From: Blastocystis sp. Blastoise
Lineage: Eukaryota > Protista > Bigyra: Opalinata
NCBI GenBank assembly: GCA_039096225.1
Contig: JBBPEB010000025.1
Location: 62,001-126,000, forward strand
Direction: 5' to 3'
Length of the DNA stretch: 64,000 nt
The notes beneath the pieces were generated by a model. It had not been told where the DNA came from and did no database searches. It saw only the letters and a program-made list of their open reading frames with translations. Made by a program: the position numbers and the translations under genes. Positions 5,732-31,063 of this stretch are shown here, one piece after another; within the stretch, counting starts at the first letter, position 1; every line of letters starts with the position of its first letter.

Positions 5732-5732
5732 A

Positions 5733-5852
5733 TAATTCTTCCGTTCTTCGAACTGCAGAAGGGGGTATGCAAACCCCGCATAGAGTCTGCGCGACGCGCG
5801 CAGCCATAAGCGGGGAAGACATCCCCCCTTTTTGTTCTCGACGGAAGAATTA
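5733..5852. repeat. GC-rich imperfect terminal palindrome/hairpin (left)
   Basis: Nested pairs TAATTCTTCCGT/ACGGAAGAATTA, AAGGGGGTATG/CATCCCCCCTT, CCCCGC/GCGGGG and CTGCGCG/CGCGCAG around an ACG loop. Confidence 0.9.
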
Positions 5853-6455
5853 ATAACATTTCTGAAGTAAAATAACCATGGGAGTGTAGGGTAGTGTGTG
5901 TGTGTATTTATTTTTTCCCATGTTTATTTATTTTTAATTTATTTGTGTTCCGATTCCAACGTGAAACGTAAAGTGATCAAGGAGAAACTCATAGTAATCA
6001 TAAAAGAAATAAAATACACAGTCCAACCCTCCCCTTTACAGAGAATATTCATGGAAAATGACTCCATCGTTGGTAAAGTGAGTAAAATAATCACGGGAAT
6101 ACAGAAAGAAATACGAAAAGAAGCACAGAATGTGCTAAATAAACACACACCCCGACCCTCCCTTTATATAGAGAAAAGATGAAATGGATGGTTCTATCTA
6201 AAAAGAAATAATAAAAATAATCACGGGAATATATAAAAATAAAAATGTATGTATAGTGATCAATAAATAATATAAAAAGTCATGATAATCATAAAAAAAT
6301 TTATATAAAAAGAGTAAAGTGATCAAGGTATGTATTTATAGTGGGTGAAAGAAAAGCTGGTGGTGGTGTGGTCTTGTAAAAAGATGTACCCACCACCACG
6401 ATTATAACGAGAGACTTTTGGAAACATGAGCGACCGATATGGAAAAATATAAATT

Positions 6456-6493
6456 TTCTAGAACATTCTAGAACATTCTCGAAACTTCTAGAA
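6456..6493. promoter_or_regulatory. Heat-shock-element array (8 alternating nGAAn units) at the inner edge of the left TIR
   Basis: TTCtaGAAcaTTCtaGAAcaTTCtcGAAacTTCtaGAA. Confidence 0.8.
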
Positions 6494-6538
6494 TAATAAA
6501 TTGTATTATTCGTTTTTTCTATTTTTATACTATATATT

Positions 6539-6706
6539 ATGGATTCTCCAAAGCAATTTGCTCCAGATTATAAAGAAGGTACTTGGAAACCTTATGGAAA
6601 TTTTGAAGTTGATGAATTAAGTGATAGTGATTCTGAAGTGGATACTATTAAAACTGAAAGTGAAGATGATTATGAAGATTATATAAAAAAATTTATTGAT
6701 TTTTAA
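6539..6706 (+). CDS. Small acidic protein (55 aa), not in the ORF track
   Basis: ATG 6539 to TAA 6706, MDSPKQFAPDYKEGTWKPYGNFEVDELSDSDSEVDTIKTESEDDYEDYIKKFIDF. HSE array upstream; TTGTTTAGTT 3' motif at 6734. Confidence 0.65.
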   Translation: MDSPKQFAPDYKEGTWKPYGNFEVDELSDSDSEVDTIKTESEDDYEDYIKKFIDF

Positions 6707-6780
6707 ATTAATTCTTATTAATAACAAAACAAATTGTTTAGTTTTTAAAAATAATAATAAATAAAACAAATTAAAATTAA

Positions 6781-8271
6781 CTAATGTTTTCTACGTTTAT
6801 TTCTTAATTTTTTATTTTTTGAAATACGTCTTTTTCTACGTAATCCATTACCTTCTTCGAGATCATAAAATACCTCACCATCATCTTCATCAAATGATTG
6901 AAATTCATCGTCTTCGTTTTTATTTCTTTTATTATTATTTACAAGAGTGACATTTTCTACTGGATTGGGAATCGGGGCTACAGGTGTAATATTTGGAGTG
7001 AAATTATTCGTGACTGCTTGAGACATTGGAACAGTATCAGGTAAAGGAACAGTAGGATCATTCATAAGAGGAATTAAATTTGGAGGATTTGAATCTTCAA
7101 TAGTAATATTATGAATATTTTCTTGTGTTAGAGTATCAGGAGTAGATGAAGAAGTTGGTATAACATTATTATTTGCTTCTATTGGATTTTTTGTTTGTGG
7201 TATTTCTTCCTCTGGATTCTTACCAAATAAAAATCCAGAAAAAGTATTGTATAAATTATTTACACCACTAACAACAGAGTTTGCAACTTTTTTAACACCA
7301 TTAACAATTGGTGTTCCTACATTTGTTGCAGTATTAACAACTTTATTAACAAATGTAGGGTTTTCTGCATAGGGAATATAATTTTTATGAAATGTTGTTG
7401 CTTGATTATCTAAAGATACCTTTTTGTTAAGTCTTTGTTCTTTAGTATCATTGCCTGACATATGAGCAAATCTAAAATAGTTATCAGCTAATATTTTATT
7501 CTTTTTCTTAGCTTCATTATCATTAGTTAATTTCCAATTATCATATAAATTATTTCTATCACTTACAAGTTTTCCTTTAATATCATTGAATCCTTCTTGT
7601 GGATCAACATTAATATCTCTCCACCAATTCTTGAGATCTTTGAATTTATTTGCACCATAATCAACAGCATTACTTATTCCATGAGTGATGTTATTAATAC
7701 CTCCAGTTAATTTATCAGACACATTGTATACATCACTTACAGTGTGATAAATATTAGAAAATAAATTACCACCTCTAGAATATAAGTAACCATCACGATC
7801 TCTTTTAGTAAAATCAATAGCACTATCAATTGTACGAGGATTTAATAATCTAGAATATTTAGAATAATCAGACATATGATTTTGTTTCATATAAGGTAAG
7901 ACATAATCATGAGCATAAATAAGTTTTCTTGTAAAGTTCTTTGGAATTCTACCATCAGGTAACAACCCAGATCCTTCATCTATTGGTTCAGTTTCTTCTG
8001 ATTCTTCTAATGAACTTTGTATAACATCTTGTCTGGTTTCTGACAAATATGAATAGAATGGATTTGACGTTGCTCTATTAACCATATTACTTTCTATTCG
8101 CTTAACAGCAGCTAAAGAATTAGGAGCAATAGAATAATTAATTGGATGACGTTCTTCTCCATCAGGAATAGATCCTGGAACAATATAATTTCGATATTCA
8201 TGACCAGTAGCACGATGATTTACGCCTACTAATCCTTTATTTGAAACATTTAAACGAGCACTTTGTATCAT
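6781..8271 (-). CDS. Viral protein, putative virion core/structural precursor (496 aa)
   Basis: Long intronless ORF with GxG/GG motifs (EGSGL, RGGNL, EGNGL) and a basic C-terminal tail after the last GxG. Confidence 0.7.
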   Translation of the reverse strand: MIQSARLNVSNKGLVGVNHRATGHEYRNYIVPGSIPDGEERHPINYSIAPNSLAAVKRIESNMVNRATSNPFYSYLSETRQDVIQSSLEESEETEPIDEGSGLLPDGRIPKNFTRKLIYAHDYVLPYMKQNHMSDYSKYSRLLNPRTIDSAIDFTKRDRDGYLYSRGGNLFSNIYHTVSDVYNVSDKLTGGINNITHGISNAVDYGANKFKDLKNWWRDINVDPQEGFNDIKGKLVSDRNNLYDNWKLTNDNEAKKKNKILADNYFRFAHMSGNDTKEQRLNKKVSLDNQATTFHKNYIPYAENPTFVNKVVNTATNVGTPIVNGVKKVANSVVSGVNNLYNTFSGFLFGKNPEEEIPQTKNPIEANNNVIPTSSSTPDTLTQENIHNITIEDSNPPNLIPLMNDPTVPLPDTVPMSQAVTNNFTPNITPVAPIPNPVENVTLVNNNKRNKNEDDEFQSFDEDDGEVFYDLEEGNGLRRKRRISKNKKLRNKRRKH

Positions 8272-8395: not shown

Positions 8396-9574
8396 TTAAG
8401 TTTCATCGTTTTGCTGATTTCTTAATCCACTATGTTCTTTATCAGGAAGTGCCTTATTTTCATTAAATAAACCTTCATTATATTTGATAATGAATTCATC
8501 AAGTGGCATTGTTCCGTACGTTTTATATATATAGCCTGACTTTTCAGCTGATCTAACATAAATTTTTTCATCTTTAAGAATGAATACCTGATCTTTAAAC
8601 TCTGGATTATTACATATTACTTTTGAGTTCTTACCATTAACATAAATTGTGAATGGTATACCACTTTCAACAATATCATAATGCATACCTTGTTCATCCA
8701 TCTTATCTTCAAATGCTTTGGCATCTTTTTTACGGTTACTCTCATAATTATCCATCTTAGCGTTTGTTTTATTAGTATCATTTTGACGATTCTTTTCATA
8801 TTTATCCATTCTAGATTGTGTATTGTTATAGTCTTGATGACGATTATTTTCATATTTATCCATCTTTGAATTTGTATTGTTAACATCTTTTTTACGATTA
8901 TTTTCATATGTATCCATTTTAGAGTTTGTAATATTATTATCTGATTGACGATTATTTTCATATGTATCCATCTTTGAGTTCAAATATTCGTTATCTTTAT
9001 GTAGATTTTCATAATTACTAGTCATATTTTGTTTCATTGAAGCTGCTTCAGCATGAATGTCATCATTATTGGTTTTAATTTGATATGAAATATTATTTAA
9101 TTGATCATACATATCTTTTTGAGCATTTGAATAGAATTCATAATTCTCTTTATTCTGTTTATATGCTTCTGAATTCAATCCATTTAAGCCTTTTATTGAA
9201 GATAATAATGTTTCATATTGATAATTATTAGGATTACTAGCATCATACCATATCTTACTTGTAGTAGGTACACCATAATTCGTTTGCCATTGAGATAACA
9301 TTGATGAATATCTTGCAGTATCTCCATTAGCTTTAGCTGAATTCATAGTAGCTATAAACATATCTTCAGGTGATTGACCATGATTTCTTAATGCTTGAAC
9401 TGCCATTGAACTATACATAGATCCTTGTGCATTAGGATCATGTGCTAATGGTTGTACTGGTTGTTCATCTTGACAAATATATGAATTGGGTAACCATGGA
9501 TCCCAAGATTGTTTTTTCTGATTTCTTGATAAAATATCATAGAGAGTTACACTATCTCCTAAATTACTTTGCAT
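8396..9574 (-). CDS. Viral coiled-coil protein with 18-aa tandem repeats (392 aa)
   Basis: About five NSKMD[TK]YENNR repeats with a 54-bp period. Confidence 0.75.
   Translation of the reverse strand: MQSNLGDSVTLYDILSRNQKKQSWDPWLPNSYICQDEQPVQPLAHDPNAQGSMYSSMAVQALRNHGQSPEDMFIATMNSAKANGDTARYSSMLSQWQTNYGVPTTSKIWYDASNPNNYQYETLLSSIKGLNGLNSEAYKQNKENYEFYSNAQKDMYDQLNNISYQIKTNNDDIHAEAASMKQNMTSNYENLHKDNEYLNSKMDTYENNRQSDNNITNSKMDTYENNRKKDVNNTNSKMDKYENNRHQDYNNTQSRMDKYEKNRQNDTNKTNAKMDNYESNRKKDAKAFEDKMDEQGMHYDIVESGIPFTIYVNGKNSKVICNNPEFKDQVFILKDEKIYVRSAEKSGYIYKTYGTMPLDEFIIKYNEGLFNENKALPDKEHSGLRNQQNDET
8695..8985 (-). repeat. 54-bp coding tandem repeat (~5 copies)
   Basis: TCCAT[CT] recurs every 54 bp between ~8697 and ~8970. 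Confidence 0.85.
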
Positions 9575-9650: not shown

Positions 9651-10688
9651 TTAATTTAAATGAAATTTTTTTAAGAAGAATTGAACAAGATTAATAATTA
9701 GATTAGTAGTAGTATCAAAGGATGTAGAGTTGACAAGAGCACCACCACAACGTTCAGCATTCTCTTTTGTAACACCACTTCCACTAGGATTTTTAAAGTA
9801 GTTATCAGCAGTTTCTTTACGTTTCTTATCATCATCAGTAGTAATCATATTATAAGCGAAATCAATAGGGATACCAAGAGAAGGATAATAGTATTTTAAT
9901 GCATTCACTACAATAGGAACAATCGTTTTAATAGTTTTAATAGCAGTATTCGCAATAATAGAATGCTTTTGTTTTGGATCCATAGGATATTCTTTATCGA
10001 TAACGACATTAACAATATCACGTACAGACACATGCTCATCATTTTTAGGTAATCGTTCTTTTATATCTTGTAATTTCTTTCTATTAGACTTTATATTATT
10101 AGAACGAATAGCCTTCTTAGCAATAATTCTTATTTGAGGAGTTACGAATTTACTTGTTTTCTTTTCTTTTTCTCGGTGACTCCCATGTTCTTTACGATGT
10201 TTTTGATGCCTTCTATGTATACCTTGACCAAATATATCATCATAATTTTCATCTTCAAGATTTGCATTATTATAATCTTTATCATCATCAGCCATCATTT
10301 TTCTTGTTATTCTCTTTGGTTGATAAGTATCATCATCGTTATATAATTCATCATCTCTATTAGCATCTTCAATATGTTCTTCAAATTGTCTTTTCTTTTC
10401 TTCTTTTGCTTTTTCTTGACGTTTTTGTTCTTTACGTTTCTGATAATAATTATATCCAGCAAATGCTCCTAATGTACCTAAAATAGGTAATGCAGTATAG
10501 ACACCATTTTTAAAGTCAGCCCAATCAGCATCTCTAGTTTGTTGTCTAACAATTTCTTCAAAACCAGTTCCTCCATATCTTACATAACGTTTATGATAAA
10601 GATCACGTCTATTTGATTTTGGTGGTGATCCTCCAAATAATCGTGGATCACAATTTTGTTTTAAATATCTTTTTGTAATTGAACTCAT
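9651..10688 (-). CDS. Viral protein with one hydrophobic helix and GxG motifs (345 aa)
   Basis: TM-like GVYTALPILGTLGAFAGYNYY followed by a basic coil; motifs FGGS, YGGTG, FGQGI, SGSGV, CGGAL. Confidence 0.7.
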   Translation of the reverse strand: MSSITKRYLKQNCDPRLFGGSPPKSNRRDLYHKRYVRYGGTGFEEIVRQQTRDADWADFKNGVYTALPILGTLGAFAGYNYYQKRKEQKRQEKAKEEKKRQFEEHIEDANRDDELYNDDDTYQPKRITRKMMADDDKDYNNANLEDENYDDIFGQGIHRRHQKHRKEHGSHREKEKKTSKFVTPQIRIIAKKAIRSNNIKSNRKKLQDIKERLPKNDEHVSVRDIVNVVIDKEYPMDPKQKHSIIANTAIKTIKTIVPIVVNALKYYYPSLGIPIDFAYNMITTDDDKKRKETADNYFKNPSGSGVTKENAERCGGALVNSTSFDTTTNLIINLVQFFLKKFHLN

Positions 10689-10741: not shown

Positions 10742-11779
10742 TTAATGAAAAGAAGGATAACCAGAATAATGCTTTTTATTTAAATAAGGATTAAAAATGC
10801 GTCGTTGACTATCTTGTATGATTTGATCTTGTATGATTTGTAAGATGGATTCTTTAGGTTTATCTTTTTCATCTCGTTCAATACCTTTCAATGAGACTTC
10901 TTCTTCAATAGGTAAAAACTTCTTCATTTTCTTTTCATATGTAGATATATGTTCATTAGGACGTTTAATACTACTACCTGATACTTCACCTTGTTCTTCT
11001 CGTTTCTCTTTTTCACTATCTTCTTCTGTCCATTTCCTTTTCTTTACCATCTTATATACATTCTGTTTACTACCACAATCAGGATTAGTCCATATTGTTA
11101 AATCATCACTACCTTGTTTCAACATAAAGAATTGATGTGGATCATTCATTAATTCTTCATCTGTAAGAATTTCATTTAGATTCGATGGCATAATCTTTAA
11201 TTTATCTGGTAAGAATCCAGGATCACGTTTTAAGATTTGACTATTAATAAAGAAATGAGATACTTGACTTAATATAGATTGATTGGTAACATCTGTATGA
11301 CTTTGAAGACATATAATAGCATTCTGTTTATAATGACGACCTTTAGATAATATAGATACAATCAATTGTTTGGTTTGTCTAGATAATGGATAGATATCAT
11401 CCAATACAATAAAATTATGTTCTGGTAATTTATATGTATTGACTAATTCATCAACAGTTTTAATCTTTTTAAATTTATCATCTACAGAATCATACCATTT
11501 ATAATCAATTCCAGCATGTTCACAAATATCTTGAAAGGATGTATAACATTCATTCTTATTGGATGCATCAGGACAAATTACTGTGACTTGTTTATATTTA
11601 TTTTTAAGATCCATAGAACATAAGAGATTCACAGTTAAGAAAGATTTACCTGAGAATGTTCTTGCAATAATCAATATAAATTTTGATTCATATGTTTTAT
11701 GATGTGATTTTCCATATTTAAATTCTAAGACTCCACATCCTTTACGTGTTTCTTTTAATGGATTTATTTTATTCACCAT
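10742..11779 (-). CDS. A32-like (FtsK/HerA family) genome-packaging ATPase
   Basis: Walker A ILIIARTFSGKS, Walker B FIVLDD, and the GRH...ICLQS motif typical of A32 ATPases. Confidence 0.9.
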   Translation of the reverse strand: MVNKINPLKETRKGCGVLEFKYGKSHHKTYESKFILIIARTFSGKSFLTVNLLCSMDLKNKYKQVTVICPDASNKNECYTSFQDICEHAGIDYKWYDSVDDKFKKIKTVDELVNTYKLPEHNFIVLDDIYPLSRQTKQLIVSILSKGRHYKQNAIICLQSHTDVTNQSILSQVSHFFINSQILKRDPGFLPDKLKIMPSNLNEILTDEELMNDPHQFFMLKQGSDDLTIWTNPDCGSKQNVYKMVKKRKWTEEDSEKEKREEQGEVSGSSIKRPNEHISTYEKKMKKFLPIEEEVSLKGIERDEKDKPKESILQIIQDQIIQDSQRRIFNPYLNKKHYSGYPSFH

Positions 11780-11848: not shown

Positions 11849-12514
11849 TTAAGATGCAGTAAAGTATATATAAAGATTTGTATTTGATAAATCAATTGGA
11901 TTATTTAATTGATCATATATTTCCCATTGGATATCTGTATATTTACCATCAATACATGGAATAGATAAATCACTTAAAGCAAATGTATTATCAAATCCTT
12001 GTTTAGCATATAAAGGAATAGAAATTAAATCATTATCTTTATTAATAATATCACAATACACACGTAACATATAGATCTTATACCATGAAATATTATTAGA
12101 TATATATTCATCACTGTAAGTAATTGGTGTATTAAAGTATTCATCATCTAATCCTAAATAATAAAAGAATTCTTTATTACTAAGACTTCTTCTGAATCCA
12201 CTATACGTACCAAATGTTTTTGTTTCTTTATCATAATAGAATGCACTCGTTTGTCCAGATACAGATATTGTCATCTTCTTACCAAGTTCAATTAATTTCT
12301 CAAAGAATTCTTCCAATGAATAGTTACCAGCTGGAAATGTATGTGCTGTTGCATTATTTTCAGTTATTCTGAAAGATGGGATATTAATGATATCACTTGT
12401 ATTCACTAATGTATTGATATGAGTAATATTTTTACCTACTAAATCCAAAGTATAATTGAATTGTTCATGACAAATTTGACTTGTAATTTTACTTAGATGA
12501 GATATTGATGTCAT
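11849..12514 (-). CDS. Minor capsid (penton-like single jelly-roll) protein
   Basis: FPAGNYSLEEF, LRVYCDII and IQWEIYDQLNNPIDL resemble Polinton/PLV mCP motifs; located between the ATPase and MCP. Confidence 0.75.
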   Translation of the reverse strand: MTSISHLSKITSQICHEQFNYTLDLVGKNITHINTLVNTSDIINIPSFRITENNATAHTFPAGNYSLEEFFEKLIELGKKMTISVSGQTSAFYYDKETKTFGTYSGFRRSLSNKEFFYYLGLDDEYFNTPITYSDEYISNNISWYKIYMLRVYCDIINKDNDLISIPLYAKQGFDNTFALSDLSIPCIDGKYTDIQWEIYDQLNNPIDLSNTNLYIYFTAS

Positions 12515-18084: not shown

Positions 18085-18507
18085 ATGGAGCCTAAATCTG
18101 TATCTGAATCCTTACATTCTTTATCAAGTACAAGTTCAACAAGTTCAGATAGTTCAACAACAACCACATTATCCGAAGAAGAAATAGAAAAGAAAAATAC
18201 TTTATTAGAATTTATTATAAAAGCTATAAAATGTTTATTTGAGAAATCAACTGAATTCTTTCAATTAATTGTTAAAAATATAGATATTCATTGTAATTGT
18301 TGTAATCCACAAACAAAGAAAGTCTATTATAAGACAATGAAAATACAACAAACTATTATTGAAGAAGAAGTCAAACATATATCAGAAGTCTTGAATGAAT
18401 TAGAAGAAATTGATTCTAATCAAAATGAATCAATACAAGAATTAGCTGTTCAATTAATGAAATTAAATATAAGTGTTGATTCTATTGTTCAATCTCTTCA
18501 TTTATAA
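18085..18507 (+). CDS. Hypothetical viral protein (140 aa; Ser-rich N-terminus, coiled-coil C-terminus)
   Basis: ATG-initiated ORF followed by the element's 3' motif at 18542. Confidence 0.7.
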   Translation: MEPKSVSESLHSLSSTSSTSSDSSTTTTLSEEEIEKKNTLLEFIIKAIKCLFEKSTEFFQLIVKNIDIHCNCCNPQTKKVYYKTMKIQQTIIEEEVKHISEVLNELEEIDSNQNESIQELAVQLMKLNISVDSIVQSLHL

Positions 18508-23427: not shown

Positions 23428-23513
23428 GATTATTTGACTTATAAATAATGAAAATAAATATGGCATAAAATTCAAAACAAATAATATATTAAAGATTCTA
23501 GAAGTCAGTTTTA

Positions 23514-23743: not shown

Positions 23744-24367
23744 TTAAATTTCAATTGGTTCTTGACTATTAATATATGTACATGAATGAGGCCATCCATT
23801 CTTATCATATAAAATACCATCCCAGAAATACATTTGTTTTGAAGGATCTCTTTTAATCTTGTTAATACTCTTAGCATGAACAACTTCATAAGAATAAACT
23901 TTACCTTTTTCATCATAAAGGAATCCATCTTCCATATGGAATTTCATAATATCAAAATCATCATCTTTAGAATTCGAATGTTCTTTAGAATCTTCAGAAC
24001 ATAAAATAGTAGTTCTATCACTTTCTAAAAGATCTTCAGTATTGATAATATCTTGAATATCTTGTTCTTCGTTAAGTTGTTGAGTATAAATATCAGCAGC
24101 GAATTCTTCATAATCTTCAAGACCTTTAATAACCGCGTTTATACGTTTTAAAGCTGATCTATAGTTTTCGACTTCGAAAGAAGCAAGACGTTCTTTAGAT
24201 TTTGCAATACCCAATAGATTCTTTTCTCTATTCAATTGAGACTGATGTAAATCAATATCACGAAGAACATTCTTATGAACTTCAACAGCCTTCTTAGAAT
24301 TCTTAAGAAGTTCCATACGAACAGTTTGAAGACATTTACGGGAATCAGCAGAAAGATTAAATTGCAT
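23744..24367 (-). CDS. Hypothetical viral coiled-coil protein (~207 aa)
   Basis: First in-frame ATG at 24367 (MQFNLS); 3' motif at 23675. Confidence 0.7.
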   Translation of the reverse strand: MQFNLSADSRKCLQTVRMELLKNSKKAVEVHKNVLRDIDLHQSQLNREKNLLGIAKSKERLASFEVENYRSALKRINAVIKGLEDYEEFAADIYTQQLNEEQDIQDIINTEDLLESDRTTILCSEDSKEHSNSKDDDFDIMKFHMEDGFLYDEKGKVYSYEVVHAKSINKIKRDPSKQMYFWDGILYDKNGWPHSCTYINSQEPIEI

Positions 24368-24765: not shown

Positions 24766-25293
24766 ATGGAAATTCCTGATAGTCTTTCTGCCAGTTTATC
24801 CCCTTTCGGTCAAGCCATGATATCCCCCTTGTTGAATCCATTTGAAAATAGTGTTTCTGAAAATCCTATGGCTTTACCCAATGATAATGATTTCTGTTTT
24901 AATTCGCGTGACGAAATCATGTTTGAAGATCCACCTCAAGAAATTCATCCAATCAATGATGTTTACGTATCTAAAAATCCAGATAGATATCATTCGGTTA
25001 ACAATCAACCAATACAATTTCAAGATCAAGTAAATACAAATCCTGATAAGCAAGCATTATTATTTACAAATGAGGAGTTAACAAATATATCCAGTCAATT
25101 CGAATCTTTATTTCAAACTATTGAAACAGCTGATAATATATTAAATGGTATTTATTGTACTGTTGATCATTTAAAAACAAAGATTGAAAGTCAGAAACAA
25201 GATTTGAAACAGATTCATGATGATTCTAAAGAAATTGTTTCATTATTATCCGAATATTCTATTCCTTCTATGTCTGAAATATTTGATCATTAA
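24766..25293 (+). CDS. Hypothetical viral protein (175 aa; acidic/Pro-rich N-terminus, coiled-coil C-terminus)
   Basis: ATG-initiated ORF; 3' motif at 25316. Confidence 0.75.
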   Translation: MEIPDSLSASLSPFGQAMISPLLNPFENSVSENPMALPNDNDFCFNSRDEIMFEDPPQEIHPINDVYVSKNPDRYHSVNNQPIQFQDQVNTNPDKQALLFTNEELTNISSQFESLFQTIETADNILNGIYCTVDHLKTKIESQKQDLKQIHDDSKEIVSLLSEYSIPSMSEIFDH

Positions 25294-25488: not shown

Positions 25489-25536
25489 TTCTAGAACCTT
25501 CTCGAACATTCTAGAACCTTCTAGAACCTTCTCGAA
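25489..25536. promoter_or_regulatory. HSE array (10 units) upstream of the SSB-like gene
   Basis: TTCtaGAAccTTCtcGAAcaTTCtaGAAccTTCtaGAAccTTCtcGAA. Confidence 0.8.
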
Positions 25537-25612
25537 AATTGATTCATTTGAAAAGAATATCGTAAAATATTAGTATTAAAATACTTATATTTTTACTAAA
25601 TACTTAACTAAA

Positions 25613-26206
25613 ATGTCTTCAACTGAATTTAAGAAACCTGCTATTCTTGATACTTCTAACTTTAATTTACAATGGGATGACACCAAAGAAAATGCTGTTC
25701 TTTTAAATAATAATCATCGTGTATGTATTTCTACTGATGCTACACCATGTTTATTTGGTTATATTGTTACACGTGATAAATGGACTTTATTAACAATTGA
25801 AGATGATAATCAAGTATTCTTAACTGCTTATAAAGAACTTTATCGTAAATTATGTGAATTATGTCCTGATGGTGATATTGTTAATTTTGTACGTATGGAT
25901 AATGGTAAATATAAGATTACAATTAAAGTACCTATTAATGCATCGAAGAATGTTACTATTGATATCACTGATAAAAGAGATAAGAAGATTAATATCGGTA
26001 AAGATCCTAAGTTAACTTACGAAGAAATACGTGAAAAGTATATTCCACCAAATACGTTATGTAAAGTATTATTTACAATACATGGTATTCATCGTTATAA
26101 TAACAAGTATTATATTGGTTTATATGCTCGTTCTATTAAAGTCATCGATAAATCTACGAAGAATACTAATAGTAATGATACTATTATTGATTTAACTAAT
26201 TTATAA
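25613..26206 (+). CDS. Putative single-stranded DNA-binding protein (NCLDV / T7 gp2.5-like OB fold)
   Basis: C-terminal IPPNTLCKVLFTIHGIHRYNNKYYIGLYARSIKV pattern resembles the NCLDV SSB beta strands; 197 aa. Confidence 0.55.
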   Translation: MSSTEFKKPAILDTSNFNLQWDDTKENAVLLNNNHRVCISTDATPCLFGYIVTRDKWTLLTIEDDNQVFLTAYKELYRKLCELCPDGDIVNFVRMDNGKYKITIKVPINASKNVTIDITDKRDKKINIGKDPKLTYEEIREKYIPPNTLCKVLFTIHGIHRYNNKYYIGLYARSIKVIDKSTKNTNSNDTIIDLTNL

Positions 26207-26280: not shown

Positions 26281-27909
26281 ATGCAAAGTTGTATCTTAGG
26301 AATGCCAAGTCCTGGTACTTTTGGTATGAATTTAATTTCAACTGGAAAAGAATATAGGCGATATAATACACAACCATTACATAAAATGGATCAATATAAT
26401 CCAATATTTCATGAAATAGGTCCAAATTCATCTATGCCTGTGTCTACTTTAGAAAGTAAAGAAATACATGATGGCAAAGAAGATGATTATGTAGATCGTT
26501 CTAAAACATTTGGTAAAGATGCTGTTCCACAAGGAAATGGTGCTTTAATTCGTGCTAGAGCAGCAGGTAAAGGTGTAATGAAAGCAGCTGGTCCAGAAGA
26601 AGATAAAATAGATGGTGAAGATCGTCAATATAAAGTATTAAATCCATGTAAACCAAGACGTAAATCTGGTAGAGGAATTATTCCAAATAAATCAGAAATC
26701 AATAAATTAGAGAATAATCAAGGTTCTGGTATTGGTGATGCAATTAAAAATAAAGTAAAAGATATGTATCAACGAAATGTATTAGATATAAGAGATGCTA
26801 TTGTAGATAAAAAAGCTAATAGAAAAGCTCGTGATGCATTAGCTATTTTAGCTCAATATGTTGGTGATGGTCATCATGATCTTGATGATGAATTCAAAAG
26901 ATTCTATGAACATAAAATAAAACGTGGTGGAAAGATTCCTATATCTGTTGCTTCAGCAATTATGAATGCAATTAAAAATAAGAAAATGATTAAGAATCCA
27001 AAATTAAGAAGAATGTTAAGACCTTCAATTATACCAAAATATATAGATTTAGATTCAGCTCAAAGTGGTGATGGTATATTAAGAGTTAAAAGAGGTGGTG
27101 GATTCTGGGATGGAGTTATGAACTATGCACCAGCTCTTTTAGGTGTAGTTGATAAAGGTATGGATTCTTTTGCTAAAGGTAGAAAAGCTTATTATGATAC
27201 ACATTTGGCACAACAGTCAAGTGAATTAAATGATATGGAATTTGAAATGGAAAAATTAAAACGTCAACAAGCATTAAATGAAATGAAAAAACAAATAGGT
27301 TCAGGAAATACTATAAATAAGATGTTTGAAGGATATTATGATGTAGCTGATGAAATGCAAGATGCTATTGATGAAGATGATAGATTACATCCACAACCCG
27401 TTGTTCAACCTCCACCACCTCCACAACAACAAGTTGCTAGACATCCTCAACCTCAACCTCCTCAACCTTATAAACCAATGTCTCGTGATGAACAAAGTTA
27501 TCCTTATAAGATTTATGGTTTCCCTCAAAATGATAAAGAGAAAGTCGATAGAAAATGGAAAGAAGATGAAAGGGATAAACGAATAGCTGCAAGAAGAGCT
27601 AAACGTAGAGGTTATGGTGGTCGAGTTAAATTAAGTAAAGAAGAATTCTTAGAACGAATGAGAAGAGGAAAAGAAGCTAAAAAGAAAAAAGGTGGTGATT
27701 TACCTCCATTAGTAACAGCTTATACAGATTTTGTAATACCTGCACAAGTAGCTCAAAGGAAACGTAAAGTAGCTAAGAATGATTTAAAACAATTACAAAT
27801 TATAAAACAGAAGATGGATAATAATGAAATATTAGATAGAGGTGAGCAAATGTTTTGGAAAGAAAAGAAGTATATGTTATCAAAAAACTCAGGGGAGGGG
27901 ATCTGGTAA
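26281..27909 (+). CDS. Basic GxG-rich virion core precursor (542 aa)
   Basis: About 11 GxG/GG motifs (QGNGA, AGKGV, SGRGI, QGSGI, RGGKI, SGDGI, RGGGF, IGSGN, YGGRV, KGGDL, SGEGI); overlaps the protease ORF. Confidence 0.7.
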   Translation: MQSCILGMPSPGTFGMNLISTGKEYRRYNTQPLHKMDQYNPIFHEIGPNSSMPVSTLESKEIHDGKEDDYVDRSKTFGKDAVPQGNGALIRARAAGKGVMKAAGPEEDKIDGEDRQYKVLNPCKPRRKSGRGIIPNKSEINKLENNQGSGIGDAIKNKVKDMYQRNVLDIRDAIVDKKANRKARDALAILAQYVGDGHHDLDDEFKRFYEHKIKRGGKIPISVASAIMNAIKNKKMIKNPKLRRMLRPSIIPKYIDLDSAQSGDGILRVKRGGGFWDGVMNYAPALLGVVDKGMDSFAKGRKAYYDTHLAQQSSELNDMEFEMEKLKRQQALNEMKKQIGSGNTINKMFEGYYDVADEMQDAIDEDDRLHPQPVVQPPPPPQQQVARHPQPQPPQPYKPMSRDEQSYPYKIYGFPQNDKEKVDRKWKEDERDKRIAARRAKRRGYGGRVKLSKEEFLERMRRGKEAKKKKGGDLPPLVTAYTDFVIPAQVAQRKRKVAKNDLKQLQIIKQKMDNNEILDRGEQMFWKEKKYMLSKNSGEGIW

Positions 27910-28001
27910 AGAGTAAAGATGAAAAACTTATTCAAAATTCAATGAATTGTGATAATCCTATTATATCTGATAAAACTCGTCATGTTACTCCTAGATCCCC
28001 T
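27882..28001 (+). other. Predicted -1 programmed ribosomal frameshift signal
   Basis: A_AAA_AAC at 27882-27888 in the correct phase; 7-nt spacer; stem AGGGGATCTGG (27896-27906) / CTAGATCCCCT (27991-28001), extended by GAGTAA/TTACTC. Confidence 0.75.
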
Positions 28002-28475
28002 GATAATTTCAAACAAACTCTATCTCAATATTGTAATATACCCAATTCTTTAATATCTCAATTATATAATTATGCTTATTTAAATAAACCTACCTCTTCT
28101 GTTGCTTGTGATCGTGCTGAAAATGTTATGAAACAATTAAATAAAACGAATTCTCAATCTTATAATTATTATAATAGTTATGATGATTTTGAACAAAATA
28201 TAGATCAAGATCAAACTAAATTTAATATGATCTTCCATGAAAGTCCTAGTGATCCTTATAATGGTCATTTTGAAGCTGTTATTTATAATGGTAATAAAAA
28301 TATAGAACACTATTCATCATTAGGAAATAAACCTACTTTTTCAAAATCATTTATTCAAAATCATAATATTCAATATAATCCTATTCAACACCAAAAAACT
28401 ACAAGTAATGCAAATGGTTGCTTTTATTATTCTTTACTTTATTTACTTTCTAATGGAAATCTTATGCCTTGTTAA
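27888..28475 (+). CDS. Adenain/Ulp1-like cysteine protease (in the -1 frame of the upstream ORF; first own ATG at 27942)
   Basis: NGHFEAV...IEHYSSLG...QYNPIQHQKTTSNANGCFYY matches the Polinton protease pattern GxHW..YFDSFG..YN..QxQ..S..CG.YC. Confidence 0.8.
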   Translation, partial: LRGGDLVKSKDEKLIQNSMNCDNPIISDKTRHVTPRSPDNFKQTLSQYCNIPNSLISQLYNYAYLNKPTSSVACDRAENVMKQLNKTNSQSYNYYNSYDDFEQNIDQDQTKFNMIFHESPSDPYNGHFEAVIYNGNKNIEHYSSLGNKPTFSKSFIQNHNIQYNPIQHQKTTSNANGCFYYSLLYLLSNGNLMPC

Positions 28476-28479
28476 AACC

Positions 28480-28497
28480 TTCTAGAATATTCTAGAA
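28480..28497. promoter_or_regulatory. HSE (4 units)
   Basis: TTCtaGAAtaTTCtaGAA. Confidence 0.65.
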
Positions 28498-28561
28498 TCT
28501 CTAATTTATTATATTAATATTTTGTATAATTAATTTGTTTTGTTTAATATTTAATACTATA

Positions 28562-28717
28562 ATGACAAAGAAACGATTTGGCAATTACTACTTAGATCGT
28601 AGTGCAGAAATTTTAGAGAATGTAAATGAAATACTGTCAGTTATTGAAATTGTTCTTATTATTATATATATTTTACTTTACTTTTATATGTCCAAGAAAC
28701 ATTCTAGAACATTCTAG
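28562..28717 (+). CDS. Small single-TM protein (51 aa)
   Basis: ATG at 28562; hydrophobic ILSVIEIVLIIIYILLYFYM; HSE upstream and 3' motif downstream. Confidence 0.5.
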   Translation: MTKKRFGNYYLDRSAEILENVNEILSVIEIVLIIIYILLYFYMSKKHSRTF

Positions 28718-28724
28718 AACATTC
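28702..28724. promoter_or_regulatory. HSE (5 units)
   Basis: TTCtaGAAcaTTCtaGAAcaTTC. Confidence 0.7.
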
Positions 28725-28819
28725 ATTTTGAACTGGCTCTATTTGTAGAATCTTTAATTTATTATATTAGTATTTTATATAATTAATTTGTTTTGTTTAA
28801 TCATTGGTTAATTTAAATA

Positions 28820-29194
28820 ATGAACAAGAAATATCTTAGTTATTCTTATTTTTGTCGTGTGATGAAGAATCTAAAAGAAGAAGGAATTAAATCTAAAAAG
28901 AATGAAATAGCGAATCTATTAGAACAATTTTTAAATAACAATAACAACAAAAATCTTAGTGATTTACAACTAAGTTATTGTAGAAATATGCTACTTTATA
29001 TAGATGATCCTGTGATTCATCAACGTCTTGAAATGCTATTGGATAAACAATATATGAAGAATGAGAATCAATATCAAGATGATAAGAATCTTATTCAACC
29101 CAATAATATGTTTATGCCTACTATGAAAAGTAATCAACAACAAAATCAATATCAAAATAATAATAATACTCTATCTTTCTTACCTTTTAATTAA
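28820..29194 (+). CDS. Hypothetical viral protein (124 aa; N/Q-rich tail)
   Basis: ATG-initiated ORF; variant 3' motif TTGTTTAGTT at 29218. Confidence 0.65.
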   Translation: MNKKYLSYSYFCRVMKNLKEEGIKSKKNEIANLLEQFLNNNNNKNLSDLQLSYCRNMLLYIDDPVIHQRLEMLLDKQYMKNENQYQDDKNLIQPNNMFMPTMKSNQQQNQYQNNNNTLSFLPFN

Positions 29195-29267
29195 TTTTTA
29201 TATCCTTTTATTACTAGTTGTTTAGTTATATTCAAATTTAAAACAAAACAAGCATGAAAACATAAAA

Positions 29268-30203
29268 TTATTCAATTAATTTTTTAAATAAATTATTATT
29301 TTCTAAAGATACATAAGAATTAATATGTGTATAATCATTATGACATAAAGCAGAAGCAGAATTTTCTATATCTTGGAATGTATTGGTTGTAGTTGTAGCA
29401 TATAATTTTCTTAATGCATTAATGGTCAATTTTGGATGGATTTGTTTTAAATGCTTATTCACAAACCAATCAAATGCTTTAGTAGTAAATCCAGTTCGTA
29501 CAGAAGATTCAAATATAAATTTACGATTTGGATTTCTTTTTAAGAGTAATTCTAGATCTTCAATCAATTCTTTTGGTGCATCTAATTGAATTGTAGAGTA
29601 TTTACCAGCAGTTTTATAATCATTTAATAGAATAGAACCAGTATGTTTCTCTTTATCATAAACAATATAATTCTTATGAATAGCTGGATCAATAGTATCT
29701 TCTGGAGTTAGAATGAATAATTGAGCATAATCAGCACGAGCAGGAGGAAGATAGGAGTAAAAATCTAATATTAATCGTAATGGATTATAATTTTCTAATT
29801 TATCGTGATATTCATGTAAATATGGAGTCGTAATACCATCTTTAATAAGATCTTGAATTAAAGTACGTTTCTTATTATCCAGATATTTTTCATACATTGC
29901 ATTAATAATCACATAAAATTCACACCATTTATTTAAAATACCTTCTTTATTTAATGAAGAAACATTACGTATAATAAATAATATCAATTCACATAACGAT
30001 TTCATTGGACTAATTTTGATTTTACGTTCATTTACCATATAATCCATGAATGAATAAGGATTCTTTAAGAATTCTGAGAACTTTTTAAATGGTAATGGGA
30101 AAATATATAAATTGAAATAATTGGTTAAACGTTTTTTCCAAATATCAGAATAATTTGAATTTTGTATAACCAAAAGATACTTGTCATAATTTGTATTTTT
30201 CAT
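29268..30203 (-). CDS. Tyrosine recombinase 2 (311 aa)
   Basis: LPPARADY (R), DYKTAGKY (K), NALRKLYAT (R) and LCHNDYTHINSY (H-x8-Y). Confidence 0.85.
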   Translation of the reverse strand: MKNTNYDKYLLVIQNSNYSDIWKKRLTNYFNLYIFPLPFKKFSEFLKNPYSFMDYMVNERKIKISPMKSLCELILFIIRNVSSLNKEGILNKWCEFYVIINAMYEKYLDNKKRTLIQDLIKDGITTPYLHEYHDKLENYNPLRLILDFYSYLPPARADYAQLFILTPEDTIDPAIHKNYIVYDKEKHTGSILLNDYKTAGKYSTIQLDAPKELIEDLELLLKRNPNRKFIFESSVRTGFTTKAFDWFVNKHLKQIHPKLTINALRKLYATTTTNTFQDIENSASALCHNDYTHINSYVSLENNNLFKKLIE

Positions 30204-30291
30204 TGTTTTTCTTAAGTAGAATCTTTAAAACTTCTATTTTCAAAAGAATAATACATAAGAAAATCAAAATAAAATATCTAAGATTCTCATG

Positions 30292-30339
30292 TTCTCGAAT
30301 GTTCTAGAAGTTTCGAGAATGTTCTAGAATGTTCTAGAA
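30292..30339. promoter_or_regulatory. HSE array (10 units) upstream of tyrosine recombinase 2, at the inner edge of the right TIR
   Basis: TTCtcGAAtgTTCtaGAAgtTTCgaGAAtgTTCtaGAAtgTTCtaGAA. Confidence 0.8.
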
Positions 30340-31063
30340 AATTTATATTTTTCCATATCGGTCGCTCATGTTTCCAAAAGTCTCTCGTTATAATCGTGGT
30401 GGTGGGTACATCTTTTTACAAGACCACACCACCACCAGCTTTTCTTTCACCCACTATAAATACATACCTTGATCACTTTACTCTTTTTATATAAATTTTT
30501 TTATGATTATCATGACTTTTTATATTATTTATTGATCACTATACATACATTTTTATTTTTATATATTCCCGTGATTATTTTTATTATTTCTTTTTAGATA
30601 GAACCATCCATTTCATCTTTTCTCTATATAAAGGGAGGGTCGGGGTGTGTGTTTATTTAGCACATTCTGTGCTTCTTTTCGTATTTCTTTCTGTATTCCC
30701 GTGATTATTTTACTCACTTTACCAACGATGGAGTCATTTTCCATGAATATTCTCTGTAAAGGGGAGGGTTGGACTGTGTATTTTATTTCTTTTATGATTA
30801 CTATGAGTTTCTCCTTGATCACTTTACGTTTCACGTTGGAATCGGAACACAAATAAATTAAAAATAAATAAACATGGGAAAAAATAAATACACACACACA
30901 CTACCCTACACTCCCATGGTTATTTTACTTCAGAAATGTTATTAATTCTTCCGTCGAGAACAAAAAGGGGGGATGTCTTCCCCGCTTATGGCTGCGCGCG
31001 TCGCGCAGACTCTATGCGGGGTTTGCATACCCCCTTCTGCAGTTCGAAGAACGGAAGAATTAT
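30302..31063 (-). repeat. Right terminal inverted repeat (762 bp)
   Basis: Reverse complement of 5732-6493. Confidence 0.95.
30943..31062. repeat. GC-rich imperfect terminal palindrome/hairpin (right)
   Basis: Mirror of 5733-5852. Confidence 0.9.

Follow-up and report, generated by a model that had tools for sequence, protein, structure and literature searches.

Known Polinton-like elements and the Blastocystis locus

Polinton-like viruses combining a primase-helicase with a tyrosine recombinase have been described (Yutin et al., 2015, PMC4642659), and integrated members reported from oomycetes carry a helicase-primase, a tyrosine recombinase, and inverted repeats (Bellas and Sommaruga, 2021, PMC7805220). 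The latter report also describes the "Gossevirus" group of stramenopile-linked Polinton-like viruses (PMC7805220). Endogenous mavirus-like elements are known from Cafeteria (Hackl et al., 2021, PMC8547959), and a midsize linear dsDNA virus, the Blastocystis "MELD virus", has been reported as well (Starrett et al., 2021, PMC8502044). We analyzed a 64-kb window of the genome of Blastocystis sp. "Blastoise", from the tortoise gut, which contains a 25,336-bp element related to these systems.

Compared with Polinton-like viruses as described in these reports, the element shares the 14–40 kb size range, inverted repeats, a double jelly-roll capsid protein with a packaging ATPase, a helicase-primase type of replicon replacing pPolB, a tyrosine recombinase replacing rve, and multi-copy integration in stramenopile chromosomes; a cysteine protease, a candidate here, is described for some Polinton-like members. 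Unlike the Polinton-like viruses so described, the element has two tandem paralogous double jelly-roll capsid genes, two putatively paralogous tyrosine recombinases with no rve, heat-shock-element arrays on its early genes, a GC-rich terminal fold-back, and an anaerobic gut host, and it is flanked by TA rather than by the reported 5–7-bp duplications. With the Blastocystis "MELD virus" it shares the host genus and virion proteins unrecognizable by primary sequence. That virus, however, is characterized by an adintovirus-like PolB and integrase (PMC8502044), whereas our element pairs tyrosine recombinases with a replicon of the helicase type and lies within an assembled chromosome. The Cafeteria elements, as reported, are likewise intact double jelly-roll viruses that a heterotrophic stramenopile carries in multiple copies with inverted repeats; a tyrosine recombinase and primase/helicase are found in some types, and promoter motifs define regulatory class in both systems. 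They are described as keeping rve and mostly 3–5-bp duplications, whereas the present element has no rve and TA flanks; their promoters mimic giant-virus motifs and the elements themselves reactivate on CroV infection, whereas the motifs found here resemble host transcription-factor sites.

Strict Polintons/Mavericks resemble the element in being self-synthesizing, bounded by inverted repeats, and 15–25 kb long, and they encode a double jelly-roll capsid protein, penton, ATPase, and protease, of which the penton and protease are candidates here; unlike them, the element lacks pPolB, rve, and a 5–6-bp duplication. Cryptons are eukaryotic tyrosine-recombinase DNA transposons in which a circular form crosses over with a short identical target, leaving a short direct repeat but no true duplication. 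The insertion proposed for our element, a tyrosine-recombinase crossover at a short target, would be similar, although to our knowledge Cryptons, unlike the element, have no inverted repeats, capsid genes, or replication genes.

An intact element within a hAT transposase gene

The element occupies window positions 5730–31065 and is bounded by 100% identical 764-nt inverted repeats, at 5730..6493 (+ strand) and 30302..31065 (− strand, 100% complementary to the left arm). The first-pass annotation had reported matching 762-bp repeats; these are indeed present, each extended by a self-complementary TA at its outer end (5730–5731 and 31064–31065). The left repeat holds internal direct sub-repeats and, at its inner end, a heat-shock-element array; its GC content is 34.6%, against 26.7% for the element overall. 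Within the window, its terminal 27-mer is confined to the two element ends (shuffling expectation 0), and the terminal 130 nt are 50% GC. Nested in the repeat is a GC-rich fold-back palindrome (5733..5854, unstranded; mirror copy 30941–31062) with a DNA fold of −34.2 kcal/mol, compared with −15.65 ± 2.78 for 200 shuffles, none of which was as good (z −6.67). Between the repeats, 18 tightly packed ORFs of 124–1013 aa and two small ones are all open, as had been claimed, and occupy 90% of the 23.8-kb unique region.

The element interrupts a hAT transposase gene at a TA, with TA on both sides, in line with the annotated site of integration. The 5′ part of this gene (2744..5729, +; DUF4371, Pfam PF14291, E 3.5e-9) includes a 36-nt GT-AG intron at 5530–5565, and the 3′ part (31066..31524, +) matches the hAT dimerization region (PF05699, E 0.0039, below cut-off). 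The left flank has one open frame up to 5731, and from 31066 the right flank stays open into the dimerization domain; the split gene returns in frame solely when exactly one TA is retained. This TA target rule is based on one insertion site of one copy. Tyrosine recombinase overlap regions are 6–8 bp, and a 2-bp flanking repeat is atypical of these enzymes. A multi-copy repeat that is collapsed or polished during assembly could show 100% identity over 764 nt, but it is extremely improbable that the perfect repeats or the entire insertion are assembly artefacts: the flanks join in frame into a single host gene, many contigs carry the same set of genes, and the assemblies in the genome paper are described as contiguous and built from long reads (PMC10690189).

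Capsid and packaging genes

Two double jelly-roll capsid proteins are encoded, one recognized by its predicted structure and the other as its paralogue. MCP-A (407 aa; 12613..13836, −) gave an AF2 model with pLDDT 82.8 and pTM 0.82, which in Foldseek matched the Sputnik capsid protein (E 6e-13) as well as PRD1 P3 and PBCV-1 Vp54. VIA comparison over residues 11–407 gave Z scores of 19.2 for Faustovirus, 17.8 for mavirus, and 17.4 for Sputnik, with the PBCV-1 capsid protein also within Z 17–19. The best structural match in BFVD (E 8e-18, TM 0.70) was an uncharacterized protein of a "MELD virus sp.", possibly but not necessarily the Blastocystis "MELD virus". MCP-B (497 aa; 14013..15506, −) is a tandem paralogue (BLASTP 29% identity, E 9e-43) with homologues in the same Blastocystis genome and in public assemblies. 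The capsid gene of the first-pass annotation is thus borne out, and its description of a two-capsid element is exceeded, there being two tandem double jelly-roll genes plus a candidate penton. This candidate minor capsid protein (221 aa; 11849..12514, −), which has no family match in Pfam, PHROGs, or NCBIfam, is proposed from its position between the ATPase and capsid genes and from a language-model lead: its nearest clusters in an Atlas feature search were mostly viral (score 0.97–0.98), one of them with DUF5901 on 14% of members.

The similarity of MCP-A to the mavirus and Sputnik proteins would suit a virophage-like satellite, silent until a giant virus infects and with TTGTTTTGTT read by giant-virus machinery as in mavirus and CroV. 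However, NCLDV capsid proteins are structurally just as similar, and therefore the fold does not single out virophages.

Annotated packaging and protease functions fared differently. The FtsK/A32-type packaging ATPase (345 aa; 10742..11779, −) matched the terminase large subunit family phrog_2666 (E 1.2e-10), with sub-threshold Pfam matches to DEAD (E 2.7e-4) and FtsK_SpoIIIE (E 0.049), while the candidate cysteine maturation protease (177 aa; 27942..28475, +), recognized by eye from an ordered His...Gln...Cys pattern, had no match in Pfam, PHROGs, NCBIfam, or PDB sequences. Sites of the form GxG[ILVMF] number 14 against about 2.6 expected and lie mostly in three proteins. The Gly/Pro/Lys-rich ORF542 (542 aa; 26281..27909, +), a candidate core protein and, from its sequence, a likely protease substrate, has six (0.73 expected); the basic ORF345a (345 aa; 9651..10688, −), a candidate minor virion protein, has three (0.16 expected); and ORF496 (496 aa; 6781..8271, −), which has a basic C-terminus, matches the tape-measure-like phrog_167 (E 1.6e-6), and may be an internal or core virion protein, has two (0.29 expected). 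The motif TTGTTTTGTT lies 29 nt upstream of ORF542, directly abuts the ATG of ORF345a, and lies 31 nt upstream of ORF496; it is also found 32 nt upstream of a repeat-rich 392-aa ORF (8396..9574, −) that has only a weak SLATT_6 match (E 0.0032, NCBIfam). An 812-aa protein (15577..18015, +), for which a spike or vertex role is a guess, matched nothing in Pfam, PHROGs, or NCBIfam, and its similarity to the 221-aa ORF is non-significant. It is followed by an ORF call for a 140-aa coiled-coil-like protein (18085..18507, +).

Replication and recombination genes

The replication protein (1013 aa; 20425..23466, −), which has a heat-shock-element promoter, contains a D5/P4-type SF3 helicase (phrog_1156, E 2.5e-9, residues 587–762; NCBIfam TIGR01613, E 1.1e-8, residues 596–774). 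It had been annotated as an AEP-SF3 replicase; the helicase was recovered, while the N-terminal 300 aa had no database match and the AEP primase domain was not found, Pfam included, although motifs seen by eye make an N-terminal AEP primase probable. The annotated absence of pPolB and an rve integrase agrees with searches of Pfam, PHROGs, and NCBIfam, where neither was matched.

Both of the tyrosine recombinases claimed earlier were supported, one by fold and the other by profile-profile comparison. YR598 (598 aa; 18575..20371, +) has a late-type upstream motif and, over about residues 1–390, a predicted Cre/Xer-type fold of two domains, followed by a 200-aa low-confidence tail. Its model is of moderate quality (mean pLDDT 60.6). 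Tyrosine recombinases fill the top ~45 rows of the Foldseek output, with a best E of 2.5e-3 and none reaching E 0.001, and both domains align with Cre (Z 12.2 over 280 aa) and XerH (Z 11.7 over 300 aa). The motifs LCARNDY, GCDxIRHLFAQ, and MLHSQxTHMxNYI are invariant in 16/16 aligned sequences of the YR598 family, as are the Arg, Arg, His, and Tyr positions. YR311 (311 aa; 29268..30203, −), which adjoins the right inverted repeat and has a heat-shock-element promoter, is a candidate tyrosine recombinase and, from its sequence, a putative distant paralogue of YR598: hhalign matched it to the YR598 family with a probability of 92.4% (E 5.2e-7, 275 columns, catalytic motifs in register), and its neighbours in the Atlas search were Preplasmiviricota clusters, including one in which 16% of members carry PF00589. 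Catalytic competence of the two proteins is not assured, because their scores against Pfam Phage_integrase are below cut-off (E 0.084 for YR311, 0.048 for YR598) and the HxxR His is absent in both, with Asp or Asn instead.

Promoter classes

A heat-shock element consists of at least three contiguous alternating nGAAn units. Trimer matches of this kind are nearly confined to the element: 43 of the 44 in the window fall inside it, in eight clusters upstream of non-structural genes, compared with one in the 38.7 kb of host DNA. The array unit TTCTAGAA is an 8-bp perfect palindrome recurring every 10 bp (one helical turn), and arrays run up to ~10 nGAAn/nTTCn units. The arrays are unstranded features. 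One, of TTCTAGAAnn repeats (6456..6493), lies 47 nt upstream of a small acidic 55-aa ORF (6540..6707, +); two (23514–23561 and 23596–23633) lie 48–167 nt upstream of the replication gene; a cluster at 24479–24496 occupies the divergent promoter region common to the 207-aa (23744..24367, −) and 175-aa (24766..25293, +) ORF calls; another array (25489..25540) lies 73–124 nt upstream of a 197-aa ORF call (25613..26206, +); and the last (30292..30339), 89–137 nt upstream of YR311, spans the inner edge of the right repeat. A duplicated promoter module (28480..28797, +), with copies at 28480–28544 and 28702–28797, has the order heat-shock element, GAATCTtTAAT core, TTGTTTTGTT. Between its copies is a 51-aa ORF, membrane-spanning by eye (28562–28717), and a 124-aa ORF call follows (28820..29194, +).

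All 15 copies of TTGTTTTGTT in the window are inside the element, each co-oriented with the local genes, and 11 of 16 copies (one 9-mer included) sit 0–32 nt upstream of an ATG. Judged from these upstream motifs, the element's genes form two promoter classes, heat-shock elements marking the non-structural genes and TTGTTTTGTT marking the virion genes and YR598. As sequence features, the cis-signals on which the first-pass annotation based its "induction programme" are real.

There is some chance, though it is the less favoured interpretation of these signals, that the TTCTAGAA arrays are operators of an element-encoded dimeric regulator such as a repressor rather than targets of a host heat-shock factor, and therefore induction need not be stress-linked. 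An 8-bp palindrome per 10 bp suits any dimeric regulator, the arrays are nearly absent from host DNA, and none of six small ORFs gained a function from Pfam, PHROGs, or NCBIfam. Against this, the arrays, with up to ~10 units, fit the textbook heat-shock-element definition of at least three, and no DNA-binding domain was recognizable in the element's ORFs using Pfam and NCBIfam.

The promoters also bear on dependence on a giant virus. In favour of a satellite, the short AT-rich, late-promoter-like TTGTTTTGTT lies at a fixed short distance upstream of the virion genes, and hexagonal particles measuring as much as 200 nm have been reported from the cytoplasm of Blastocystis (PMC12835684). Nevertheless, the replication and recombination genes carry classic nuclear transcription-factor site arrays and no viral motif, the element has its own replicative helicase, and a survey reported no gene flux between giant viruses of the gut and Blastocystis (10.1101/2024.03.23.586382), and we regard a satellite lifestyle as quite improbable. 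The heat-shock-element arrays on non-structural genes would argue instead for transcription by host RNA polymerase II.

Copies and relatives

The genome-wide copy search suggested in the first-pass annotation revealed a family: element proteins recur at at least 90% identity ~20 times, on at least 13 contigs of the same genome, with four copies close together on one contig. Each 90% protein cluster holds 9–21 distinct sequences, and the exact window sequences of MCP-A, MCP-B, the penton candidate, and YR311 are found on 5, 4, 3, and 3 contigs, respectively. Together with the perfect repeats, intact ORFs, and split transposase gene, these exact proteins and the number of family copies strengthen the earlier view of a recent and potentially active copy.

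Relatives in public assemblies include recurrent contigs of ~23.7 kb and ~27.4 kb, and contigs of 23,710, 23,715, 23,719, and 23,956 bp recur among the homologue clusters of MCP-A, MCP-B, and YR311. Contigs of recurrent size can also come from multi-copy integrated repeats. The morphogenesis set is retained at 43–65% identity in many divergent relatives, which points to purifying selection on virion genes, and relatives on genome-sized contigs keep both capsid paralogues. The capsid sequence was undetectable in IMG/VR and JGI metagenomes.

Such a copy number, the insertion inside another transposon's gene, and the lack of a free-virus relative in IMG/VR would also be consistent with a virus-derived transposon that multiplies only within the genome, as Mavericks and Cryptons do, its capsid genes being recent relics or repurposed and no infectious particle being formed. 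This is unlikely, however, given that all ~20 ORFs are intact at 90% coding density and that relatives conserve both the morphogenesis set and the paired capsid genes.

Proposed life cycle

The locus is best explained as a Blastocystis virus of the Polinton-like, double jelly-roll kind, integrated with its genome intact and likely to have kept the capacity for excision, replication, and virion formation. Its identification as a complete Polinton-like provirus that has a helicase replicon and tyrosine recombinases but lacks pPolB and rve agrees with the first-pass annotation, and the element is real and probably active. In the cycle that may be inferred, stress would induce the provirus, which would then excise, assemble virions, and re-integrate at a TA. 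The element would enter and leave the chromosome when a tyrosine recombinase crosses its joined, palindromic inverted-repeat ends over with a short target, TA or possibly TAAT; a TA would be left on each side. A nuclear host regulator of the heat-shock-factor type would switch on the non-structural genes (the replication protein, YR311, and four small ORFs), and a later class would comprise the virion genes and YR598, which have TTGTTTTGTT a short way before the ATG. Host polymerases would replicate the element together with its own helicase and probable primase, and the GC-rich terminal fold-backs may serve end replication or recombinase binding. The candidate small cysteine protease would likely trim Gly-rich core proteins at GxG sites. 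If this reading is true, the element would be the first host-anchored DNA virus of Blastocystis, a very common gut protist.

Element Boundaries and Insertion Site

The Polinton-like provirus occupies window positions 5730-31065 (25,336 bp) and has a GC content of 26.7%, versus 22.2% for the remainder of the window. A repeat search of the window returned a single outstanding inverted pair, the terminal arms of the element at 5730-6493 and 30302-31065, which are 764 nt long, 100% complementary, and separated by 23,808 nt. The outermost two bases at each end of the element are TA; because TA is self-complementary, these arms equal the matching 762-bp terminal inverted repeats of the first-pass annotation plus the flanking TA, and that description is confirmed. 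Within the 64-kb window the terminal 27-mer is found only at the two ends of the element (0 expected). Each inverted repeat has in its outer 122 nt (5733-5854 in the left arm) a GC-rich fold-back of -34.2 kcal/mol, compared with -15.65 +/- 2.78 for shuffles (z -6.67). ORF calls through this terminal palindrome, at 5599-5859 (-) and 30973-31065 (+), were dismissed as artefacts of palindrome composition; the 183-aa ORF at 30973-31524 is genuine host coding sequence from 31066 on only. Direct sub-repeat families lie further inside the inverted repeat, at 5866-6340 (for example, GTAAAGTGATCAAGG in 4 copies and AATAATCACGGGAATA in 3 copies), together with two CCCTCCC...TATA-like blocks; these may be iterons or promoters.

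The host site is a split gene for a hAT-type transposase (2744-5729 and 31066-31524), with DUF4371 in a 934-aa ORF on the left flank (PF14291, E 3.5e-9) and the hAT dimerisation region on the right (PF05699, E 0.0039, below cut-off). Downstream of a 36-nt GT-AG intron (5530-5565), the reading frame on the left has no stop up to base 5731 and that on the right none from 31066 onward; the two connect only when exactly one TA is retained. The element has therefore split the hAT transposase gene and is now flanked by TA left and right; the overlap between the target and the element ends, once joined, is TAAT at most. Tortoise isolates of Blastocystis have been described as having a GC content of 21-23% and longer introns in a long-read assembly preprint (PMC10690189), and the 36-nt hAT intron agrees with the "longer, variable" introns reported there. 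Host genes downstream, at 51965-56026, encode SPRY (E 2.4e-21) and HECT ubiquitin-ligase (E 1.3e-45) domains, an ordinary eukaryotic context.

Capsid, Packaging, and Replication Genes

The unique region enclosed by the arms is filled to 90% by 18 ORFs of 124-1013 aa plus two small ones. All are open, in agreement with the uninterrupted reading frames described earlier. The 407-aa MCP-A (12613-13836, -) gave an AF2 model with a pLDDT of 82.8 and a pTM of 0.82 from a 24-sequence alignment. Foldseek matched this model to 201 PDB chains at E <= 0.001, led by the Sputnik capsid protein (6e-13), with SGIV, PRD1 P3, and PBCV-1 Vp54 among the further top matches. VIA-align scored residues 11-407 at Z 19.2 against Faustovirus, 18.8 against PBCV-1, 17.8 against mavirus, and 17.4 against Sputnik, and the closest predicted viral structure was an uncharacterised "MELD virus sp." protein (E 8e-18, TM 0.70, 13% identity). 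The modelled fold is a double jelly-roll, so a structure of another kind, which would have spoken against the capsid gene proposed at first, did not appear; the double jelly-roll major capsid protein typical of the Polinton-like group is thus present, by its modelled fold, as MCP-A. The adjacent gene encodes the 497-aa MCP-B (14013-15506, -), a full-length paralogue of MCP-A (29% identity, E 9e-43) with homologues of its own (7 representatives, four of them at 45-55% identity).

The 345-aa ATPase (10742-11779) matched a terminase/packaging family (phrog_2666, E 1.2e-10), which upholds the packaging gene of the first-pass annotation, and also matched DEAD (2.7e-4) and FtsK_SpoIIIE (0.049) in Pfam under the curated cut-offs. 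An FtsK/A32-type packaging ATPase, another trait of the Polinton-like group, is present. A 221-aa ORF is a candidate for the penton, the single jelly-roll minor capsid protein of the group, on a language-model lead, its neighbours in an Atlas feature search being mostly viral; it had no family match in Pfam, PHROGs, or NCBIfam. A resemblance to the 812-aa ORF, to which a common "P.G.Y[ST]..EF" pattern had pointed, was not significant (best E 0.43).

The 1013-aa replication protein contains the SF3 helicase domain of a D5/P4-type primase-helicase (phrog_1156, E 2.5e-9; TIGR01613, E 1.1e-8, under the curated cut-off), and the SF3 half of the AEP-SF3 replicase proposed earlier therefore stands. 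Residues 1-300 had no match in Pfam or PDB sequences, so the AEP primase call rests on DxD- and GxH-like motifs recognised by eye.

Adenain-type proteases cleave where GxG precedes a hydrophobic residue. Such GxG[ILVMF] sites are overrepresented in three Gly-rich/basic proteins, ORF542 (26281-27909; 6 observed vs 0.73 expected), ORF345a (9651-10688; 3 vs 0.16), and ORF496 (6781-8271; 2 vs 0.29), and the 598-aa recombinase YR598 has one close to its C-terminus. Judged from their sequence, these are possible cleavage sites of a maturation protease. The candidate adenain/Ulp1-type maturation protease, of 177 aa, had no match in Pfam, PHROGs, NCBIfam, or PDB sequences; the abundance of such sites in candidate core proteins supports it indirectly. 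ORF496 also weakly matched a phage tape-measure PHROG (E 1.6e-6), as did ORF392 (8396-9574) SLATT_6 (E 0.0032). Both labels occur in the gene-map legend for the MELD virus in Starrett et al. 2021 (PMC8502044). PDB sequence searches gave no useful match for YR311, YR598, the replication protein, the capsid profile, the YR598 profile, the protease, the ATPase, or the primase N-terminus.

No ORF matched pPolB in Pfam, PHROGs, or NCBIfam, and the same three collections gave zero matches to the rve integrase, as the first reading had anticipated. The element thereby differs from strict Polintons/Mavericks, which have pPolB and an rve integrase that leaves a 5-6-bp target-site duplication, whereas the flanks here share TA only. 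It fits the broader Polinton-like group, whose members measure 14-40 kb, often have inverted repeats, lack the pPolB and rve pair, and typically encode a helicase-primase and/or tyrosine recombinase. Stramenopiles are already known to harbour integrated Polinton-like viruses in which inverted repeats go together with a helicase-primase and a tyrosine recombinase. Those of oomycetes combine these features with 5-7-bp duplications (PMC7805220), and the Cafeteria elements provide a further precedent (PMC8547959). In Blastocystis, data mining has yielded a "MELD virus" credited with PolB and an integrase (PMC8502044).

Two Tyrosine-Recombinase-Fold Proteins

The first of the two putative recombinases, YR598 (598 aa, 18575-20371, +), has 163 homologues, and the motifs LCARNDY, HVNDTKN, GCDxIRHLFAQ, and MLHSQxTHMxNYIxPY are kept in all 16 aligned sequences. 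Its structural model is moderate (mean pLDDT 60.6), with residues 1-335 mostly at 70-90 and the C-terminal 200 aa poorly modelled. Foldseek returned no row at E <= 0.001 for YR598; the first ~45 rows were tyrosine recombinases throughout, including XerA (2.5e-3), Tn1549 Int, XerH, Cre, XerD, and lambda Int. A structure search independent of Foldseek was led by Cre (Z 12.2, 280 aa) and XerH (11.7, 300 aa), followed by XerA, Tn1549 Int, and lambda Int. Both domains of YR598 aligned with the top structures, and the N-terminal domain also matched isolated SAM-like integrase domains. The model thus indicates a two-domain tyrosine-recombinase fold, with core-binding and catalytic domains. A reading of YR598 as a protelomerase is possible but was not supported, the matches to TelA (Z 5.7) and TelK (Z 5.1) being weaker than those to Cre (12.2) and Xer.

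The second, YR311 (311 aa, 29268-30203, -), has one distant homologue cluster at 42% identity. Its family profile aligned with that of YR598 over 275 columns (hhalign probability 92.4%, E 5.2e-7), with the Arg, Arg, His, and Tyr motifs in register between the two families. The Atlas clusters nearest to it consist of Preplasmiviricota proteins, and in one of them 16% of members carry PF00589. In Pfam, YR311 fell below the cut-off for PF00589 (E 0.084, 13.1 bits vs a gathering score of 27.1), the YR598 homologue P0174 was likewise below the gathering score (E 0.048), and YR598 itself had no PF00589 match.

The catalytic set of tyrosine recombinases follows the consensus R...K...HxxR...H/W...Y. 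Conserved positions in YR598 and YR311, respectively, are the first Arg (ARNDY/ARADY), the second Arg (IRHLFA/LRKLYA), and the His and Tyr (HSQxTHMxNY/HNDYTHINSY). In place of the His of HxxR, YR598 has Asp and YR311 has Asn, and the assignment of the Lys is uncertain. YR598 and YR311 are thus both recombinase-fold proteins, which may or may not be catalytically active. The two tyrosine recombinases of the first-pass annotation are supported, one by its fold and the other by its profile link. It is conceivable that their roles are split between YR311, which is array-driven and adjoins the inverted repeat, and YR598, which has a late motif and a long tail.

Regulatory Motifs

A heat-shock element consists of at least three contiguous alternating nGAAn/nTTCn units. 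The strict trimer pattern has 44 matches in the window, 43 of which fall within the element in eight clusters; by sequence, these arrays have the makeup of heat-shock elements. A 55-aa small ORF, the replication gene, ORF207, ORF197, ORF124, and YR311 have clusters at 47-167 nt upstream of them, and the inner edges of the inverted repeats are formed or crossed by two of the arrays. The arrays might instead be operators of a regulator encoded by the element; their near confinement to the element would suit such operators and their heat-shock-element composition a host factor, and we regard operators as possible, if on the unlikely side.

The second motif, TTGTTTTGTT, occurs in 15 copies in the element and 0 in the other 38.7 kb of the window, always co-oriented with the local genes. 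Counting one 9-mer copy, 11 of 16 are located 0-32 nt upstream of a start codon. The genes preceded by TTGTTTTGTT are ORF496, ORF392, ORF345a, the ATPase, the 221-aa ORF, ORF140, YR598, ORF542, ORF124, and a 51-aa small ORF. Structural and non-structural genes thus have distinct signals. Three copies of TTGTTTTGTT lie 3' of the last gene at convergent gene ends, so it may be either a promoter or a 3'-end signal. A general 3'-end signal of the host was rejected, as the window's 38.7 kb of host sequence lacks the 10-mer. In addition, the genome preprint describes the downstream gene element of human subtypes as not enriched in tortoise isolates (PMC10690189). On these two grounds TTGTTTTGTT is treated as element-specific. 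A promoter module composed of a heat-shock element, a GAATCTtTAAT core, and TTGTTTTGTT is duplicated at 28480-28797, and its first copy precedes the 51-aa small ORF (28562-28717), which has a hydrophobic stretch.

Copies and Relatives

The exact sequence of MCP-A is present on 5 contigs, that of MCP-B on 4, and those of the 221-aa protein and YR311 on 3 each; that the element is an assembly artefact is scarcely credible beside these recurrences and the host reading frame restored at a single TA. Clusters at 90% identity contain 9 distinct sequences for MCP-A, 15 for MCP-B, 11 for the ATPase, 10 for YR311, and 21 for YR598, all from this single genome and on contigs of at least 13 distinct lengths. 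From these protein clusters, the only basis for the copy number, the genome is estimated to hold about 20 very young copies, which bears out the recent origin proposed in the first reading. The family makes up ~0.5 Mb of the 33-Mb genome, where its members are annotated as hypothetical proteins only; the exact proteins are named "hypothetical protein WA158_... [Blastocystis sp. Blastoise]". The same genome encodes relatives of MCP-A at 47-51% identity and further relatives of MCP-B and YR598. Capsid and recombinase proteins on other contigs (P0077, P0079, P0080, P0169, P0171, and P0232) represent distant lineages at 47-55% identity. As these are distant lineages of the same virus family in one Blastocystis genome, several related viruses appear to have colonised it.

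ENA and Logan assemblies yielded 87 relatives of MCP-A and 163 of YR598, at 43-65% identity. Contigs of 23,710, 23,715, 23,719, and 23,956 nt recur across the MCP-A, MCP-B, and YR311 homologue clusters, and a second lineage has its peak near 27.4 kb. Contigs of ~23.71-23.96 and ~26.9-27.5 kb recur in many independent assemblies in the clusters of P0007, P0170, P0089, and P0168, which hold relatives of the capsid and recombinase genes. The recurring sizes suggest discrete genome-sized units, and since the MCP-A, MCP-B, and YR311 clusters share them, the layout of two capsid genes and a recombinase is conserved in a unit that assembles at genome size. The sizes are compatible with free genomes and also with multi-copy insertions. 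About 20 copies in one genome are what a purely intragenomic transposon might leave; for an element with intact ORFs and virion genes conserved in divergent relatives, we consider such a transposon improbable. No related DNA loci were found in IMG/VR with the capsid and YR598 alignments, or in JGI metagenomes.

A Proposed Temperate Cycle

The anatomy of the element can be assembled into a temperate cycle, offered here as a proposal. A recombinase crossover between a TA or TAAT target and the joined, palindromic ends would account for both integration and excision. In the nucleus, a host HSF-type factor would drive the early genes, and the virion genes and YR598 would form a later class. Replication would combine the helicase of the element with host polymerases, the two double jelly-roll proteins would serve as the building blocks of the capsid, the ATPase would package the DNA, and a protease would cut core proteins at GxG sites. 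A giant-virus-dependent virophage, which the Sputnik and mavirus matches of MCP-A might recall and for which host-type arrays upstream of the replication gene would be unexpected, seems improbable. In a more far-reaching version of the temperate cycle, the element would stand for a family of temperate viruses with double jelly-roll capsids in which the host heat-shock-factor pathway directly controls the lysogenic switch: stress would induce the replication protein and excision by YR311, and the late YR598 would be packaged or would act on the hairpin-forming palindromic ends in end resolution and re-integration, with a capsid of two proteins. Taken as a whole, this more far-reaching version is tentative and rather unlikely.

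A literature search joining the heat shock element with Polintons found nothing except a plant transposon review. For Blastocystis with Polinton or major capsid protein, no title or opening of an abstract pointed to such an element. Viral elements are not discussed in the main text of the genome preprint ("virus" 1, "viral" 1, "Maverick" 0), the supplements of which may list such repeats (PMC10690189). A 2026 review treats the viruses of Blastocystis as unresolved, with old particle sightings overlooked and the sole metagenomic report of uncertain source (PMC12835684).

Significance

Blastocystis is said to be the commonest eukaryote in the human gut. A cultured isolate of it is now tied to a complete capsid-encoding virus genome in its chromosome; the host of this genome is therefore certain, and induction, excision, particle formation, and transmission are open to direct testing. 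For the biology of Polinton-like viruses, the conserved paralogous pair of double jelly-roll capsid genes is unusual, as is the pair of paralogous tyrosine recombinases with different promoter classes. A third oddity is the use of heat-shock-element arrays as apparent early promoters, which would argue for nuclear, host-driven control independent of giant viruses. If the more far-reaching version is true, many public assemblies would contain, in the relatives on contigs of ~23.7 and 27.4 kb, viruses of gut Blastocystis that are common but overlooked, and such viruses could explain the old reports of virus-like particles.
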